From Acholeplasma sp. (GTDB lineage: Bacteria; Bacillota_I; Bacilli_A; Acholeplasmatales; UBA5453), in assembly GCA_036677365.1 (NCBI GenBank), contig JAVBWN010000012.1:64001-128000 (forward strand): 64,000 nt of DNA, read 5' to 3'. A program made the position numbers. Within the stretch, counting starts at the first letter, position 1. Every line of letters begins with the position of its first letter. This document shows positions 36,001 through 42,000 of this stretch, one piece after another.

Positions 36001-39000
36001 AATATTTGTTATAAGAGTCGAAGATATATCTGCATTTGAGTTTAATTATAAAGTTGAAGAATTAAAAGACAGATAATTAAAATTAATCTTATTCTATCAA
36101 TATTCCAATAGCGAATAATACAATTGAGTAGCGTTCGTACTAACAGTTTATGAAAAGAGATCGAAAAAACATCGTAGTAAAATGTTACAAAATGTAATAC
36201 ATTTAACATAATAGGAAGAAGTGAGACAATGGGTTATATAAACTACACATTAAAAGATAACGAAATTATTCAAAATAGATACGATTCCATGAAGCCTCTA
36301 AAAATAGGCATAAAGATAGTTGAACCAAAGTTGGATTGTGTATATTGTAAACTGGTATTCGACGATGCATTAAAACTTTATAATCATATTAAAAATGTGC
36401 ATAATGTGGTTAAACCTGTCACTATTGTTAATGGAAAAATACCCAGTCAATCTGGGGATTATTATATCGATCATGTCGATGAAGTTTTAGTTCTTATGTA
36501 TGGCAGTAAACAGATTGTGCTTATAGATAAACTAGTTCAAGAAACCTCAAGTGATACCTACAATCTAACAGAAATAATTAGAACTAGATTATCTCATAAT
36601 AGTGAAGTAATTTTATCGGTTGGAGATTTTTCGTTAAGAATCATTAAGTACAACATAGACTCGATTAAAAATCCAATCGTCCATGACACTATCAAACTGT
36701 GGAATCAAGCCACTTTTAACAATACACCGATTCGAATGATAAATACGGATGAACTTAATCATGCTGAAAAAAAATATATTGAAGCTTTTTATAACTATTT
36801 CATTGCATGTAATGCGAATGGTACAGATAAAGTGAATCGTTATATGGATGCGTATTCGAGACTTCAATCTTTCGAAACGATAAATACATTAGCGAAAACA
36901 ATTCTGAAAGTAATAGCGTTAAAGATGAATTGGATTGACCGTTTAGAACACTTGTCGTTTGAAGAGGATATCTTTAAGATACTTATTGATTTTTTTCACT
37001 TTAAGAATCCACAAATCAGGCTACAGGAATCAGGGCAAGAACAGTTATTTATCGAAAATGAATTAGAGATTCAAATTCGAACCATGCTTAACTTCATGCA
37101 AAGAAATAATGATGAAGTCAAAGCCTATGTCCATAACAAGGACTATTACTTAGATACTCAAGACATCAACGCTAAGGATCGAACATTATTCATACTATAT
37201 AGATATTTTCAATTGATTGAAAATTCTAAGAATGCATCTGGAATTATTGAAGCCTTTACAAGTGATACTCTACGTGAATTATGCAAAAATAACATGAATG
37301 AAATACAAGGAGGCTAAAGAAGTGAGTCAGAAAAAAAATAATAAAAAAGAAGTAGATGTATCCAATTTAATCGATGAAATTCAAGGGAAAGAATTAGCTC
37401 TAGCAATTTTAAATGATTCAAAAGCACCAACTAATATCGAAAAATTGATTGTGGACAACATCAAAAATAAGAGTCTTTCAATCCACGCTTTGAAAGCTGT
37501 TTTAGACGTGATTGATAATCGATTTAGATTGCATAAAATTAACATTCTATTAAAACTCTATACTGCTTTAAAAGATATTAAAACTAATGACATAACGGCA
37601 CATGACTTAATTCGAGCTTACATTTTAGATGCTGTAGTGACCATATTGGATGAGATTAAAAGTGAATACATTCATGAAGAGAATCAATCTTTTTTTACTA
37701 CTAACGGAGGGTTAAAATCTTTTTATGAGGATACCTTTAATAAAATGAGGTTTGCCAAAAATCTTGATTTTATTAGCCCTGCTAAGCAAAAAGATCAAAG
37801 TTTTAGATATAGTGCCATTATATGTTATATCTACAGCATGCTCTTTAATCACTTAGACACTATTACCAAGAAAAATGAACTTTATTGGCGAATTGACCGA
37901 ACTTTAGCTGAATTCTTTGCTGGTTTGACAGCCAATGATCAGTTTAAGTACATTGGAGATACTGTACTTAAAGCGTTAAATAGCAAAAATTTTAAGCAAG
38001 AACTTTCTAAACAAGTTCATTTATATGTAGCTGACCAAAATATCACTGAACTACTTATTAGTGATAAAGAAGAGTTGACAGAATCAGTTGTTAATCTTAA
38101 TAAGATGGTTACAACTTTAAAAATGAAAGTTATAGAATTAGAAACAACCAACCGCAGTTTGAATGCTGAAAATGCATTATGCAGGAAACAGAACGAATCA
38201 CTTAATGTAGAAATTAGTAAGGTGAACAATAGACTTGAATTTGAAATCAATAAGTTTGAGAAACAATACGAATCATTCAGGGAGAACGTATTATCTCAAA
38301 TTAAAAAAGATTTAGATTTAGAAATTTTAGGTGTTCGTGACATCATTGAACCTCTAAATGATGAAACGAAAGCTATGATTATTCGAAGACTTGGTCGAAT
38401 TGACAATATATTAAGTAAGAAAAACTAAAGGAGCCCCTTATGGCAAAGATAGGTATAGACTTTGGAACAACAAACTCGCTGCTTGTCGCATTTGATAAAG
38501 ACAAAAGAGAGTTTACTTATTTTAATTACATAGATAATACTCCCGTCCCAACATCCTCTACAGTATGGTATCACGATAATGATGTTGTTGTTGGTGATAT
38601 GGCTAGAGAAAAAATGTATCAATTATCAGGTGTAGATGGACATCACTTTGAACGATCGGTTAAGCTCAAGTTGGCCAATTCTGAATCGATTAATATCTTT
38701 GGTGAACGCGTTCAGCCACACAAGGTTGCAGGTCAAATTATTAATAAGCTTAAAGAAGATTCAATTCAAAAATATAAAGCAAATATTCTTGATATCGATT
38801 TAAATCGTGCTGTTTTTACCATACCAGTTAATTTTAGCGGCAAATCTCGAGAAGAGCTTAGACGTAGTGCCCATGAAGCTGGAATTGAAATTACAACTTT
38901 TATTCATGAACCGTTTGCCGCGATTGTTGCCTATTATTTTAATAAGTGTCATAAAAACCACACAAATGTTGTGCAAGAATTGGACCACTTAAACAGTCAG

Positions 39001-42000
39001 TACTTACTCACATTTGACTGGGGTGGAGGAACACTTGATATAACCGTTGTACAAATTGAAAATGGCAAAATATCAGAAAAAGGAACCTCAGAACTTACAA
39101 ACAGAGCAGGAGACAAATTTGATGAAGATTTAGCTCGTTATGTCTGGAGCAAATTTATCGATCAAAAAGGTAAAAAGTACAATCCTGAATACTTAGAAAA
39201 AATACGCATACAACGCTGGGGCCGATTGTTATCGATTGCTGAAAAATGTAAAATTCAGTTATCAACCGATATGCAGTCGGAGTTCATTTTGGAAAGAGTT
39301 ATGGAAAATGAAAATATTGATATCATCATTCATAGAGATGACTTCACCAAAATCATTGAAAGTACGGTGACAGATGCTCTAAACAAAATTGATGAAGCCT
39401 TAAAACAAGCTGGCATCAAAGACATAGATATTTCTAGTGTATTACTGATTGGTGGTACATGTAATATTCCAGCCATTCAAAAAGCCGTCACAAATAAATT
39501 TGGACACCGTGTTGTTACAGTAGAAAACCCTGAATTACTGATTGCACAAGGTGCAGCCATCATCTCTGAAATGGCATGGTTACCGGTCTTAACAAAAGAT
39601 ATCTTAGTTCAATTATCAGATGATTCTTATTACCCACTCTTTGAACGAAATCTGCCTATAGCCTCTAATATGAATGCAGTGAAGTCTGAAACATTTACGT
39701 GCGTTGACCATCGTGGAAAAAACGCAAAAGTAATCATTTGTGAAGGGTTAGATCAAGATGCACATAAAACTTTAGGTATTATTAATGTGCCATTATTGGG
39801 ACATGATTTGTTTGGCGACGATATTTTTGTAGAAGCTAAAATTAATCGAGATATTGTTTTGCATGTGAGTGGCTATAGCAAAATGTCGCAAGGACACAAA
39901 ACCCCAGAGCAACAGTATTCAGTTAGAAAATCTTGTGAAATCAACCAATTATGTTTTGGTTTAGACATTAAAAGGTGATTAGTATGAAACAAAAATCCAA
40001 TATCAAAATCATATCGAACATTATGTTACAAGATAAATATAAAGTTTCACCATCCTCATTTGTTCCTTGGGAACTTTTAAGAAAAGAAGAAAGAGATGTT
40101 CGTTATCATCCAAACTTGACACCACACCAATTAAATCAATTAAAGAAGCACTTGTGGTATGCGAAGAGAATCGAAAATGATGACGGTACGGTGACAATAT
40201 TAAACGAAAATGCCGAAGTTATCAAAACAATAACCGAGGATGAATATTTGGTTCAATTGATTAATAAATCTGAACATATCTAATCAGTAGCAAAATGAGT
40301 CTAAATAGCAGCTTTCATGTGGTTTAGAGCTTGATTTCTGCTCCATATAAGAAGCATTAGTCTAATACAATTTGTATTAGGCTTTTTTCTTATCAGAAAG
40401 GGGTAATTTTTCCTATCTGCCAATTTCCAGAACTCTAATTTGAATTGAAATCGGGGTTTTTAGAGGTCGAGTATTTTAGTGTTGCTTAACTATTTAACGA
40501 TTACCTAACAATCTACACGATTGTAAAAATATGAACATTAATTGATAAAAAATGATTACAACGTAGGATTGGATAAATTATAAACTATCTAATTTGATAA
40601 AATTGTGCTAAAATAGTGCATATGGTGTCCAAATCGAGGGAGTATTATGAATTACGCATATTTAATAAAGAGATTACGAGAAAAACTTATATTATCACAA
40701 ACAGAGTTTGCTAAAATATTAGGTGTTTCTTTTACAACTGTATCAAGATGGGAAAAAGGAGTTCATGCCCCAACAATAAAGGTAAAAAGAAAAATAGTAG
40801 AGTTATGCAGAAATAATCAAATTGAGATGGAGGAATAGACTATGGCAAAAGCAGTAAAAAAACAGAAAGAAGCAACTTTGGAGCAGGTACTATGGAATTG
40901 CCGAGTCGCTCTTCGTGGTTTTGGTAGTTTTGAGAAGAATAGAGATTCTATTATTGGACTTGCTTTTTTGAAGTTTGCAAGTGACAAGTTTGATAAAAGA
41001 AGACAAGAGATTATTGCAGAACACGGAAATATTCCTGTATTTTTAGAAAAGGTGTCCTTTTATAATTCGCAAAATGTGTATTATTTAGAAGAACATTGCA
41101 GATGGAGTCATATTGTTAAAAATGCAGGTGCGAATGATATAGCGGTTATCTTGGATAAGGCTATGAAAGATATTGAAGACAAAAATCCACCTTTAAAAGG
41201 AACACTTCCACAAAATGTATATACTTCACTTGGTGCTGATAAAAATGCTATGAAATCTTTAATTGATGAGATCAATAAAATTAATGAAAAAAGATTCCAT
41301 GAAGAAGATTTAATTGGTAGAGTATATGAATACTTTCTTCAGAACTTTGCTGCATCTGCTAGCAAAGAAGATGGAGAATTTTATACACCTGCATGTGTGG
41401 TCCAGTTAATTGCTGAACTTATAGAGCCTTTTGATGGAATTGTTTATGATCCATGTTGCGGCTCTGGTGGCATGTTTGTACAATCAATGAAGTTTGTAGA
41501 TAATCATAAAGGAAATAGGAAAAAAGTCTCAATCGTTGGTCAAGAGAAAACTCCAGAAACATGGAGACTGGCTAAAATGAACTTAGCTATTAGGGGTATT
41601 GCACATAACCTAGGACAAAAGAATGCTTCAACATTTACTGAAGATCAGCATCAGGATTTGATAGCTCAATACATTATGGCTAATCCACCATTTAACCTTA
41701 AAAATTGGAGAGGTGAAGATGAGCTTTTGGATGATGCAAGATTTTATCAATACAAACCAGCTATACCTCCGAAATCAAACGCAAATTATGCATGGATTTT
41801 ACATATGCTCTCAAAACTTGATGTAGAAAAAGGAATTGCAGGGTTCTTGCTTGCAAATGGAGCACTAAATGCAGGTTCAAGTGGAGATGAAGATGATGAT
41901 GACAGTGGACAGGATCAATATCTTATCCGTAAAAAAATACTTGATAATGATAAAATTGAGGCCATAATTGTCCTACCAAGAGATATGTTCTATACTACTG

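Follow-up and report, generated by a model that had tools for sequence, protein, structure and literature searches.

Organization of the operon

The window, that is the whole stretch of 64,000 nucleotides of Acholeplasma sp. DNA that was analyzed, contains a tight four-gene operon on the + strand (positions 36229-40283), at exactly the coordinates given in the genome-wide survey's note: the four ORFs, all + strand, are co-directional, are separated by -20, 11 and -4 nt (g1/g2, g2/g3 and g3/g4, respectively) and are followed by a terminator-like hairpin of their own. The first gene, g1 (36229-37317, 362 aa), codes for a C2H2 finger/TPR-like protein, g2 (37298-38428, 376 aa) for a coiled-coil protein, g3 (38440-39978, 512 aa) for an Hsp70 and g4 (39975-40283, 102 aa) for a small protein with an S-N motif. 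A strong ribosome binding site, AAGGAG, was found 7 nt ahead of the g3 ATG. Judging from the DNA sequence, g2 may start at an alternative GTG (37322, giving 368 aa), preceded by AAGGAGG at 37307-13, and g4 is more likely to start at the ATG at 39984 (99 aa), after the ribosome binding site AAAGGTGA at 39971-78; g4 homologues likewise start with M-x-K-S.

The 152-nt intergenic leader upstream from g1 (36077-36228, + strand) is the presumed promoter region. It contains two sigma-70-like matches, 9/12 each, at 36184-36212 and 36203-36230, but promoter-like matches were not enriched in the region (34 found against 30.1 expected from shuffles), so that the promoter is placed here by its position only. 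Downstream, a consensus scan identified the hairpin at 40359-40383 (+ strand), 76 nt past the g4 stop codon, with a stem of 11 pairs and a loop of 3 nt, followed by the T-run TTTTTTCTTAT; the region has 4 terminator-like sites, against 1.5 +/- 1.1 in shuffles. This hairpin separates the operon from the HTH and type I restriction-modification (R-M) genes downstream. Metatranscriptome contigs over the cassette were fragmentary and possibly reflect DNA carry-over; a contig end at 40370, inside the hairpin, is a weak hint only.

Repeating the survey's searches gave no PADLOC match for any of the four genes and no NCBIfam match for g1, while g2 and g4 had NCBIfam matches only far below the cut-off (E>=0.004). 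No effector domain (nuclease, toxin, protease or membrane) was seen in the four proteins with Pfam, NCBIfam, PADLOC or PHROGs.

A lidless Hsp70 and its partners

The g3 protein consists of a nucleotide-binding domain, a linker and a beta substrate-binding domain (SBD), and ends with a conserved C-F-G-L-D. The Pfam HSP70 profile matched with 175 bits over positions 2-444 of 599, and the low DnaK equivalog score (161.2 bits against a cut-off of 648) was reproduced. The subfamily profile, which matched DnaK structures at E 2e-53, spans residues 5-482 of Geobacillus DnaK (2v7y), up to the last strands of the beta-SBD, where the protein stops; the description of g3 as lidless is thus borne out at the level of the alignment. 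Residues D7, G9, T10, T11, K75, E157, D193, G195-197, T198, D200 and G338-339 are invariant, and the ATPase motifs are intact and invariant in the subfamily. The consensus has T at the position of DnaK R167, which we take to be a J-domain contact. Together with the invariant ATPase motifs, this fits a J-independent, self-contained machine. With the DnaK-DnaJ-GrpE system, g3 shares the fold of the nucleotide-binding domain and its catalytic residues, a hydrophobic linker and a beta-sandwich SBD, but it has no lid, and the operon has neither a J-protein nor GrpE. The SBD carries an invariant surface of its own. With the C-terminal-domain profile alone, no match to a solved structure was obtained at E<=0.1; an unrelated OSCP chain (E 0.85) was all that it retrieved. 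As had been reported, g3 has 854 relatives at E<=1e-20; of the best 120 of these, one was 100% identical and the rest 48-64%.

The g4 protein has an N-terminal strand with the motif K-S-N-I-K-I-I-S-N-I-M-L, then P-x-x-L-L, a helix with L-T-x-x-Q and a variable tail, in which homologues often have a Cys cluster. S14, N15, P31 and Q52 are invariant in the family alignment. The S-N-I-M/A motif proposed previously was conserved as to S-N (S14 and N15 invariant in 17/17) but its form has to be changed to S-N-[IVL]. With a profile search at E<=1e-3, 96 representatives of clusters were retrieved, most of them of 53-105 aa, and no Pfam, PADLOC or PHROG family was found above noise. Of the 134 complete Hsp70 ORFs for which DNA was available downstream, an S-N ORF followed 19 of the 50 short ones (<545 aa) and none of the 84 long ones; the background of the motif was 53 in 6224 ORFs.

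In g1, a disordered N-terminus is followed by the C2H2 finger, a beta-rich domain (residues ~64-140) and a TPR-like all-helical domain (~147-362). The ligands of the finger are C37, C40, H53 and H58 (CX2CX12HX4H); Pfam zf-C2H2_4 scored under its cut-off (E 0.028), and a beta-beta-alpha finger is predicted by the AF2 model (pLDDT 79.9, pTM 0.73). Conservation of the finger, previously claimed for 3 of 4 homologues, holds with another count: the ligands were invariant in 11/11 homologues and in 6/6 distant ones. The helical part gave structural matches to TPR proteins at Z 6-7.9 only, and Foldseek found no match for g1 at E<=1e-3. The g1 protein is a likely sensor or adaptor.

The g2 protein is all-alpha, with a poorly conserved N-terminal helical part and a single helix of ~118 residues (232-350), typical of a coiled-coil stalk; the AF2 model has a predicted pLDDT of 65 overall and >90 across ~260-330. 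Pfam gave weak coiled-coil matches only (ZapB, E 0.0045). Homology to the gammaproteobacterial versions was found over the C-terminal 125 columns (hhalign 92.8%, E 4.1e-7). Identity across homologues is 13-22%, so the case for a common function is made by position and the coiled coil, which might act as a scaffold or cofactor and substitute for the J-protein and exchange factor that the cassette lacks.

Conservation of the module, fusions and a sister architecture

Gene order is kept in the related loci. g4 lies downstream of the Hsp70 in all 20 close metagenome loci, three pairs of near-copies included (13 found by BLAST and 7 by a motif-bearing small ORF), and where upstream DNA suffices the g2 position is filled in 11/11 loci, by a gene of 352-428 aa, and g1 is present in 5/5. 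The earlier figure of 7 in 80 metagenome loci did not stand, as it was low because most of the loci counted had unrelated Hsp70s; with a subfamily-specific query the module was found wherever the DNA reaches.

In Pseudomonas, Parasalinivibrio and Endozoicomonas, the Hsp70 itself carries the g4 domain at its C-terminus, at the place of the lid. These fused Hsp70s (L003, L005, L006, L081 and L083) are 590-644 aa long and carry the g4-like domain behind a K/E-rich linker, and hhalign showed that the loci keep g1 (99.8%, E 2.6e-28) and g2 upstream. N, P31 and Q52 are invariant in all 13 aligned g4 sequences, fused forms included. Adjacency and fusion suggest that the g4 protein binds the Hsp70; in the fused forms its domain might serve as a substitute lid or a structural subunit and not as a pseudo-substrate.

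A g4-like S-N domain also forms the N-terminus of UvrD/GajB-like helicases located behind related Hsp70s of 472-538 aa, although the presumed homology reaches only 74.6% probability (hhalign, E 2.6e-5). Where the DNA reaches so far, these helicases precede a DrmA-size helicase (four, of 1045-1061 aa): that of L064 matched DrmA with 742 bits, that of L174 showed generic helicase Pfam domains only, and the gene that follows matched DrmB with 64 bits in L064 and 264 bits in L174. Such cassettes were found in L011, L064, L084 and L174, and partially in L032 and L173. They account for the four loci in which the survey had seen g1 replaced by an unrelated protein, which belong to this sister architecture. 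Like the operon of the window, the DISARM-like cassettes have a short Hsp70, related to g3, with a coiled-coil gene immediately ahead of it and an S-N / T-x-x-Q / Cys-cluster domain directly downstream; they differ in that the S-N domain heads a helicase of 756-824 aa, which DISARM core genes follow, and in that the g1 zinc-finger gene is missing (hhalign found nothing between g1 and their upstream protein). The window cassette, in contrast, has no helicase and no DrmA/DrmB.

In the phylogenetic analysis, the 18 ZnF-linked Hsp70s formed one clade (SH-aLRT 96). A single group of all 26 S-N-linked or fused rows, named after a tree had been seen, was not rejected (p-AU 0.72); the link between the ZnF-type and DISARM-type Hsp70s was weakly supported (local support 11 in the FastTree free tree).

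Genomic contexts and possible functions

As the survey described, a type I R-M operon follows closely behind the module in a defence island (PADLOC: MTase_I 377, Specificity_I 394 and REase_I 979 bits). The window also contains HamB, PDC-S37/Hhe-like, MkoA-like and NERD+UvrD genes. Known or candidate defence or restriction genes adjoin the module in 12 of the 15 loci with flanks from which this association was judged, the exceptions being L169, L170 and L165/L166. Recurrence inside the anti-phage defence islands of many bacteria indicates that the operon is probably an undescribed immune module, defence being suggested by context; no description of the cassette was found in the literature searched, and PADLOC likewise has none. 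R-M genes, however, are common everywhere. Wadjet genes adjoin at least one copy.

We favor, at a probability of about 0.55, the reading that the four genes make up a single, horizontally mobile cassette and belong to a widespread, undescribed defence-island family (anti-phage/anti-plasmid), in which an ATP-driven Hsp70 switch holds a strand of a dedicated partner. The engine would be a catalytically competent Hsp70 minus its lid, apparently turned into a single-client machine, whose remodelled yet strongly conserved beta-SBD would hold the N-terminal S-N strand of g4; in other lineages this partner is fused to the Hsp70 at the former lid site or stands at the head of a UvrD-type helicase. An invading element would act as trigger, the Hsp70 would open in an ATP-driven step, and release or repositioning of the S-N-bearing partner would lead to an immune output, by itself or via neighbouring restriction-type systems. 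Lack of a recognizable effector domain in the cassette makes an autonomous output hard to explain, and the parts given to g1 and g2 are conjectural, as are trigger and output.

The same lack could mean that the cassette assists or regulates restriction systems built on a helicase or translocase (type I R-M, BREX, DISARM, McrBC), for example by loading, assembling, restraining or recycling their motor subunits or by protecting them from the anti-restriction proteins of phages. The sister architecture, with its S-N domain within the UvrD helicase of a DrmA/DrmB operon, is consistent with this, as are the restriction-type neighbours of many copies: type I R-M in the window and L159/L160, an SNF2 helicase and Eco57I-like MTase in L167, an Eco57I-like MTase in L002, DrmA/B-like genes in L171, UvrD, MTase and RE genes in L172, HsdS with PDC-M72 and PDC-S11 in L005, McrBC in L081 (a distant copy directly downstream of the McrB/McrC pair) and a BREX operon in L003, where the module sits between PglX (1483 bits) and PglZ (974 bits). 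We nevertheless consider it unlikely. The adjacent systems belong to five or more unrelated types, and no restriction system was present in the fetched flanks of L154 (KAP/PDC-S20 and an SLFN-type helicase), L165/L166 (a GIY-YIG gene), L169 (a prophage lysis/integrase region) or L170 (a MobL relaxase). In the window the cassette is parted from the R-M operon by the terminator-like hairpin and a separate HTH gene, and R-M genes are the commonest residents of defence islands, so adjacency may be coincidental. The remaining loci have JetD and PDC-M16A (L004) or a ZorD/DpdE-like helicase (L006) as neighbours.

The mobile backgrounds bear on two further explanations. The survey's prophage copy was recovered in L169, in the order tail endopeptidase, amidase, module, Tn916-type integrase; here the Hsp70 is split into two ORFs. 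SecB-type toxin-antitoxin-chaperone systems offer an analogy for a chaperone-dependent addiction module, which would stabilize mobile elements through a toxic or labile g4 or g1 protein under Hsp70 control. Besides the prophage and the relaxase of L170, Tn7-like and IS transposases near L171 and L002, the IMG/VR contigs that carry L081 and L082, and the small size of g4 with its conserved chaperone-facing segment would agree with this. It seems improbable: no toxin or antitoxin family was detected (Pfam, PADLOC, NCBIfam), four genes and ~4 kb are large for such a module, and the Hsp70::g4 fusions are hard to square with release of a free toxin. Toxin-antitoxin modules are, besides, often defence systems themselves, so that this explanation overlaps our preferred one.

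The moron-like position in L169, between lysis genes and integrase, and relatives on two viral-collection contigs might also point to counter-defence or fitness cargo of mobile elements that, for instance, shields incoming DNA from host restriction or remodels host proteins. This we regard as very improbable, since the copies are mostly chromosomal and embedded in restriction, BREX or DISARM operons rather than opposed to them, no close relative was found in 50,697 phage or 72,556 plasmid records (best identity 30%), and the partner proteins have no PHROG family match.

The cassette appears foreign to its lineage, in agreement with the survey. None of the 399 other genomes of the phylum that were scored has the C-terminal domain of the subfamily (1 genome unscored), and the surrounding 20 kb had no matching DNA in five genomes of the same genus except four short stretches of 78-808 bases. 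Near-identical DNA was present in metagenome runs of several other studies. The intact ATPase and the conserved, dedicated-looking substrate domain could also be expected of a specialized housekeeping chaperone set that serves one client, as HscA serves IscU, with no conflict role; absence from the 399 genomes, the five of the same genus among them, an ordinary DnaK on another contig of the genome, and variable, mobile and defence-gene-rich neighbourhoods make this hardly credible.

Other Hsp70 conflict systems are already in print. CnuD/CnuCD of type III CoCoNuTs likewise combine an Hsp70-like nucleotide-binding domain and SBD in a predicted defence operon with coiled-coil proteins, and CoCoNuTs often adjoin type I R-M, BREX or Druantia (eLife 2024, PMC11090510). 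According to the passages available from that paper, the hallmarks of CoCoNuTs are NxD GTPases of the McrB type and McrC homologues, besides HEAT repeats on CnuD and HEPN RNases, none of which the window cassette has; degenerate Walker A-like motifs and a probably poor ATP hydrolysis are described there, unlike the Hsp70 of the window with its invariant ATPase motifs, and those passages make no mention of C2H2/TPR-like or S-N partners. In the available part of a study of GTPase-centred conflict systems (eLife 2020, PMC7159879), GAP1-N2 is found with HSP70 and GrpE, and a DO-GTPase with tubulin and HSP70; an HSP70-like NTPase can also, in the part available of a recent preprint, stand in for a STAND NTPase as the switch of a tripartite system (bioRxiv 10.64898/2026.10.19.760177). 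The cassette resembles these systems, as far as they are described there, in having an Hsp70-family NTPase as the presumed regulated switch of a multi-gene conflict system, but it has no GTPase, tubulin, GrpE, DnaJ or FNIII. One GTPase-centred variant has an HSP70 without peptide-binding domain (PMC7159879), whereas g3 keeps the beta peptide-binding domain and lost the lid alone.

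Operon organization and the lidless Hsp70

The cassette consists of four co-directional genes on the forward strand with operon-like spacing: g1, coding for a zinc-finger protein (36229-37317, 362 aa), g2, coding for a coiled-coil protein (37298-38428, 376 aa), g3, coding for an Hsp70 (38440-39978, 512 aa), and g4, coding for a small protein (39975-40283, 102 aa). A strong ribosome binding site was found for g3. The most likely start of g4 is the ATG at 39984, which is preceded by the predicted ribosome binding site AAAGGTGA and agrees with the N-termini of the homologues; g2 may start at the GTG at 37322, with AAGGAGG ahead of it. 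A terminator-like hairpin (40359-40383) is located 3' of g4, followed by a separate HTH gene (40647) and by hsdM/S/R. The base composition of the cassette was indistinguishable from that of its surroundings (~30% GC), and no Rfam match was obtained between 35400 and 40900.

Contigs from a metatranscriptome covered parts of g1, g3 and g4 as well as the junction of g1 with g2; one of them stopped at 40370, inside the predicted terminator. These contigs hint at transcription of the cassette; they could also be due to DNA carry-over.

With 175 bits for Pfam PF00012 (cut-off 20.6), the product of g3 belongs to the Hsp70 superfamily. In 31/31 sequences of its subfamily, the phosphate-1, phosphate-2 and adenosine motifs were invariant, as were the positions equivalent to K70 and E171 of DnaK. 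We take the ATPase residues of g3 to correspond to K70, E171 and D194/T199/D201 of DnaK, and to have the same roles. The position of DnaK R167, presumably a J-domain contact, is T in the subfamily consensus.

The DnaK/HscA equivalogs have curated cut-offs which a full-length score must exceed, and for this the alpha-helical lid is needed; g3 scored far below the cut-offs (NCBIfam NF001413, TIGR02350 and TIGR01991; 161.2 against 648, 156.5 against 822.55 and 156 against 708.55). The profile of the 31-member subfamily aligned to residues 5-482 of Geobacillus DnaK (2v7y), from the nucleotide-binding domain through the linker to the end of the beta substrate-binding domain. The predicted protein lacks the lid: the alignment to DnaK reaches the last strands of the beta substrate-binding domain, and there the protein stops. 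The C-terminal 137 residues have an invariant pattern of their own, including the terminal C-F-G-L-D; a profile of this region gave no match to solved structures at E<=0.1, the sole match being an unrelated OSCP chain (E 0.85). A normal DnaK is present elsewhere in the same genome.

Residues 37-58 of g1 read CX2CX12HX4H, in agreement with the classical C2H2 pattern (CX2-4CX12HX3-5H, beta-beta-alpha fold). The finger ligands were invariant in 11/11 and 6/6 homologues, and in the AF2 model two strands (35-36, 43-44) are followed by a helix (47-57); the C2H2 Pfam score was under the cut-off (15.6 against 27 bits). Besides the finger, the model (pLDDT 79.9, pTM 0.73) shows a helical solenoid over residues 147-362, preceded by a beta domain over 64-140. 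No Foldseek match was obtained with it at E<=1e-3, nor any Pfam TPR match with the sequence. Exhaustive structural alignment returned mostly TPR proteins, with Z scores of 6-7.9 which, being below 8, fall within the range of chance arrangements for helical repeats, and barely covered the beta domain. The closest structures were a BcsC repeat (Z 7.9, rmsd 1.9, 79 aligned) and NprR (Z 7.8, rmsd 8.6, 198 aligned); OGT, Csx29, AimR, NlpI and STI-1 were further matches. At this chance-range level, the model is suggestive of a TPR-like solenoid in the C-terminal domain of g1.

The g2 protein is all-alpha, with a helix of ~118 residues modelled confidently and the remainder of the model at low confidence. 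In the ESM Atlas, g1 led to C2H2 clusters and g2 to a coiled-coil cluster of Bacillota, all of them leads below 0.9. In word-index searches, the g1 profile retrieved five proteins and the g2 profile three; these low numbers do not imply rarity, since the method needs shared 5-mers. PHROGs gave nothing meaningful for g1, g2 or g4.

The g4 protein, its fusion to the Hsp70 and a helicase-headed relative

Because generic Hsp70 motifs swamp full-length scans, the metagenome collection was searched with the C-terminal domain of the Hsp70 only. The search yielded 24 loci: 20 close ones, whose C-terminal domains were 49-55% identical to the query, and 4 distant ones. The partner genes were sought among all their ORFs by BLAST of the window proteins and by gene maps. 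A g4 gene was found 3' of the Hsp70 in all 20 close loci (13 by BLAST; 7 as small ORFs sharing the N-terminal motif), which amount to ~17 independent loci given the near-copies L159/L160, L163/L164 and L165/L166. A gene in the g2 position was present in 11/11 loci reaching upstream (9 by BLAST, 2 by position and alignment), and g1 in 5/5 loci reaching far enough.

No family was found for g4 in Pfam, NCBIfam, PADLOC or PHROGs. Its profile retrieved 96 cluster representatives among 1.84 billion, 56 of them at E<=1e-10. Most were 53-105 aa long; ten, of 152-398 aa, had tails of no known family, one with a weak TPR match that we regard as doubtful. J-domains have a conserved HPD that lies between their helices II and III. 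Reading the R-Y-H-P-N of g4 as a degenerate form of it was rejected: the tripeptide was unconserved in 16 homologues and no DnaJ match was obtained.

The N-terminal S-N-[IVL] segment of g4 (S14, N15; the S-N strand) was sought behind 134 complete Hsp70 ORFs with downstream DNA from all fetched loci, counting ORFs that start at most 80 nt from the Hsp70 stop and have S-N-[ILV]-x-[ILVM] near their start. Such an ORF followed 19 of the 50 short Hsp70s (<545 aa) and none of the 84 long ones, a count in which near-copies swell the 19 and the expression and the 80-nt limit overlook two true cases (L084, L162). As background, the motif occurred within the first 30 residues of 53/6224 ORFs.

Five Hsp70s of 590-644 aa carry a g4-like C-terminal part: those of Pseudomonas iridis Y-22 (L003), Parasalinivibrio latis (L005), an Endozoicomonas MAG (L006), a contig of the viral collection (L081) and locus L083. 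This part, preceded by a lysine/glutamate-rich linker, is colinear with free g4: a hydrophobic strand, (S/A)-N, P-G-x-L-L, L-T-x-x-Q and a Cys cluster, with the N, P and Q invariant in 13/13 aligned free and fused sequences. Upstream of the fused Hsp70s lie genes homologous to g1 (99.8% in hhalign, with E 2.6e-28 over 330 columns) and to the C-terminal half of g2 (92.8%, E 4.1e-7). The Hsp70::g4 fusion is the strongest evidence in this analysis that g4 would work on the Hsp70. Together with the strict adjacency of the free genes, the fusions make a physical association of the two proteins quite probable. The fused domain takes exactly the place of the lid. Seating of the S-N strand in the peptide cleft of the Hsp70 is a tentative proposal, somewhat short of even odds; the alternative is that g4 would act as a detachable substitute lid.

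L011, L064 (a Clostridium MAG), L084 and L174 share a sister architecture, of which L032 and L173 hold partial copies. It has an Hsp70 of 472-538 aa placed after a coiled-coil gene, and in the complete loci the gene 3' of the Hsp70 codes for a protein of 756-824 aa with an N-terminal S-N strand, a T-x-x-Q helix and a CRCE...C..C cluster, the remainder being a UvrD/GajB-like helicase. Alignment of g4 with the N-termini of these helicases gave 74.6% (hhalign, E 2.6e-5); that of g2 with the protein upstream of these Hsp70s was weak (20% probability, E 1.1e-3) and covered the coiled coil only. In the four complete loci, the S-N helicase gene is followed by one for a helicase of 1045-1061 aa, which matched DrmA in L064 (742 bits) and generic helicase Pfam domains only in L174. 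The next gene matched DrmB, at 264 bits in L174 and at 64 bits in L064, whose copy is truncated. The combination of coiled coil, short Hsp70, S-N UvrD/GajB-like helicase, DrmA and DrmB looks like an undescribed DISARM-like variant. The sister cassettes span 4643-15140 in L064, where a PLD-ResIII helicase lies upstream, and 5015-15085 in L174.

In a DnaK-rooted FastTree of 129 Hsp70s, all the S-N-linked and fused forms fell in one group of 26 rows, with a support of 11 for the uniting branch. A quick IQ-TREE tree was built from these 26 and 30 random picks from named genome loci (56 rows); in it, the 18 Hsp70s linked to a g1-like zinc-finger gene had an SH-aLRT of 96. For the 26-row group, which was defined after a tree had been seen, the tree holding the rows together was 13.7 log-likelihood units above the result of the free search (p-AU 0.72), so one origin was not rejected. 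The zinc-finger-linked and DISARM-type Hsp70s may, judging from these trees, have one origin.

A further variant of the family, with long branches, occurs in an Elusimicrobia MAG (L001, 1515-4652): two short Hsp70 paralogues in tandem (487 and 490 aa) have a gene for a 73-aa S-N protein 3' and one for a 338-aa unknown protein 5'.

Defence-gene neighbourhood, known systems and proposed role

The window is a defence island. It holds a HamB-like DEAD-box helicase gene (4144-6369, PADLOC HamB 168 bits), overlapped by a 229-aa ORF (3477-4166) that could be HamA; 3477-6369 is probably a Hachiman system. A PDC-S37/Hhe-like helicase-nuclease of 1346 aa (24297-28337; DUF4011/AAA_11/AAA_12 and MTES_1575 nuclease domains, PDC-S37 529 bits) is preceded, in the stretch 20643-28337, by an 831-aa protein with DUF4116 repeats and an unknown protein of 353 aa. 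Downstream from the cassette are a type I R-M system (40842-46760), an MkoA-like helicase of 1505 aa (51125-55642), a ClpB-like AAA_2 ATPase resembling PDC-M37B/DolB (58919-60745) and a NERD+UvrD helicase (61326-63089, 197 bits). The run 51125-63089 also holds a 717-aa protein (weak DUF4145), a 371-aa unknown protein and a small radical-SAM/4Fe-4S protein. Directly after hsdR come a RecA/RepA-like ATPase of the AAA_25 family and a GIY-YIG protein (46877-48953).

Known or candidate defence or restriction genes were adjacent in 12/15 loci, a raw count that includes the window. The cassette lies directly upstream of a type I R-M system in L159/L160, and upstream of an SNF2 helicase and an Eco57I-like methyltransferase in L167; in L154 it adjoins KAP NTPase/PDC-S20 and an SLFN-type helicase. 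In Pseudomonas iridis Y-22 (L003, NZ_JALKQL010000014.1, 1110-11516), a BREX type 1 operon is interrupted between pglX (1483 bits) and pglZ (974 bits) by three genes (zinc finger, coiled coil and Hsp70::g4), which occupy 4728-8782. The cassette stands between JetD and PDC-M16A in L004, between HsdS and PDC-M72A/B with PDC-S11 in L005, after a ZorD/DpdE-like helicase in L006 and after IrrE-McrB-McrC in L081. In L002, an Eco57I-like methyltransferase and an IS are close to the cassette. Other copies are beside DrmA/B-like and Tn7-like genes (L171), beside UvrD, methyltransferase and endonuclease genes (L172), beside a GIY-YIG gene (L165/L166) and near a MobL relaxase (L170). In L169, a prophage, the copy is located between lysis genes and a Tn916-type integrase; there (6872-8411) the Hsp70 is split into ORFs of 106 and 400 aa, through either decay or an assembly error, and g1, g2 and g4 are intact.

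PADLOC-DB v2 gave no hit at E<=1 for the four proteins of the window and none at E<=1e-5 for the three of Pseudomonas iridis; the distant Hsp70 of L002 had a weak match to PDC-M61B (29 bits, E 1e-7). In the available parts of its description, CoCoNuT type III (CnuB/CnuC/CnuD) combines a McrB-like NxD GTPase, a McrC/DUF2357 partner and HEAT-like repeats on an Hsp70-like protein (PMC11090510); in contrast, the cassette proteins had no AAA_5/McrB, McrBC or HEAT match (Pfam, E<=1) and no PADLOC hit. The GAP1-N2/DO-GTPase HSP70 conflict systems, as described in the available parts of PMC7159879, have a TRAFAC GTPase gene with GrpE or tubulin, linked to HSP70, whereas g1, g2 and g4 had no match to GTPase, GrpE, tubulin, DnaJ or FNIII. 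DISARM is defined by a core of DrmA helicase and DrmB (DUF1998), neither of which was matched by the four cassette proteins or 19 other window proteins scanned; the sister architecture alone has them, as in L064 and L174.

The gene set is not described in the available parts of the CoCoNuT papers (PMC11090510), the 2020 conflict-systems paper (PMC7159879) or a 2026 ParA preprint. The same holds for the available text of the YprA/ARMADA preprint (PMC12458937), which mentions UvrD, zinc finger and words beginning 'actin' and has no mention of DnaK, chaperone or ASKHA, and for that of a 2026 BREX survey (PMC12839542), where DnaK, chaperone, ASKHA, actin-like and C2H2 are absent. The supplementary tables of any of these papers could still contain it.

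We consider it roughly 55% probable that the cassette is a defence or conflict system, in which a self-contained Hsp70 machine that has a partner strand of its own was recruited into immunity. An accessory role to restriction systems is unlikely; it keeps some weight because no effector is recognizable in the cassette, which is the main gap. If the cassette defends cells, a chaperone-based switch would join the bacterial immune repertoire, and the recurrent unannotated 'DnaK-like' genes of defence islands would be explained. Hsp70s are among the best-understood protein machines, and the mechanism of a dedicated, lidless, single-partner Hsp70 in immune loci is undescribed.

More speculatively, and with the odds rather against it, the Hsp70 could be a modular immune clamp. 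The lidless Hsp70 would hold the short S-N strand as a pseudo-substrate in its peptide cleft, the strand being carried by a free adaptor, by a fusion replacing the lid or, as a graft, by UvrD helicases from DISARM-like operons. The process would be gated and timed by a zinc-finger/TPR-like sensor, and ATP-driven release would arm the effector. Such a clamp would be a prokaryotic counterpart of eukaryotic chaperone-gated immune receptors, and a new portable sensor-to-effector wiring that plugs into BREX, type I R-M, McrBC and DISARM. The fusions found in nature and the S-N strand, which is short and invariant, offer a directly testable handle. Genetics is feasible since cultured Pseudomonas and Parasalinivibrio have copies, with Pseudomonas iridis Y-22 as a tractable host. 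The BREX-embedded copy and the helicase-headed DISARM-like relatives could illuminate the regulation of those poorly understood systems.

Distribution and variability of the region

Single-protein scans of the genome-contig and viral-contig collections found no relative; in the latter, neither the C-terminal-domain query nor the g1 alignment had a match. The best identity among the matches listed for the full-length Hsp70 alignment scan was 33-34%, and tblastn against phage and plasmid records detected no close relative (best identity 30%). Among 400 scored genomes of the phylum, five of them of the same genus, the C-terminal-domain profile matched that of the window only. The 20 kb around the cassette had no DNA counterpart in the five same-genus genomes save four short matches of 78-808 bases; the AAA_25 gene accounts for the sole sizeable one (808 bp, 70%).

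Directly upstream of the cassette is a sugar-modification cluster (28665-35434): radical SAM, WbmS-like deacetylase, HAD plus GT1, GT1, UDP-GlcNAc 2-epimerase-like and UDP-sugar dehydrogenase-like genes. This cluster had no DNA counterpart in the five same-genus genomes either, so the variable region exceeds the defence genes.

Near-identical DNA (at least half of the sampled 31-mers) was found in four runs that do not belong to the probable source sample and come from four other studies. The contigs of four runs cover the stretch incompletely, with gaps along it in the RNA run and over the R-M genes in every run. Those of three DNA runs span 36042-40345 at 90-99% identity, and one run passes into unlike sequence at ~40345, which hints that the right-hand neighbours of the cassette differ there.

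The intergenic stretch 40349-40682, after the cassette terminator, is single-copy in its own genome and has no Rfam match. Its summed contig depth was 466 and 186 in two metagenome runs, against ~20-75 around it, and in run X5 a loose contig end at 40343 resembles the 3' end of a tRNA.
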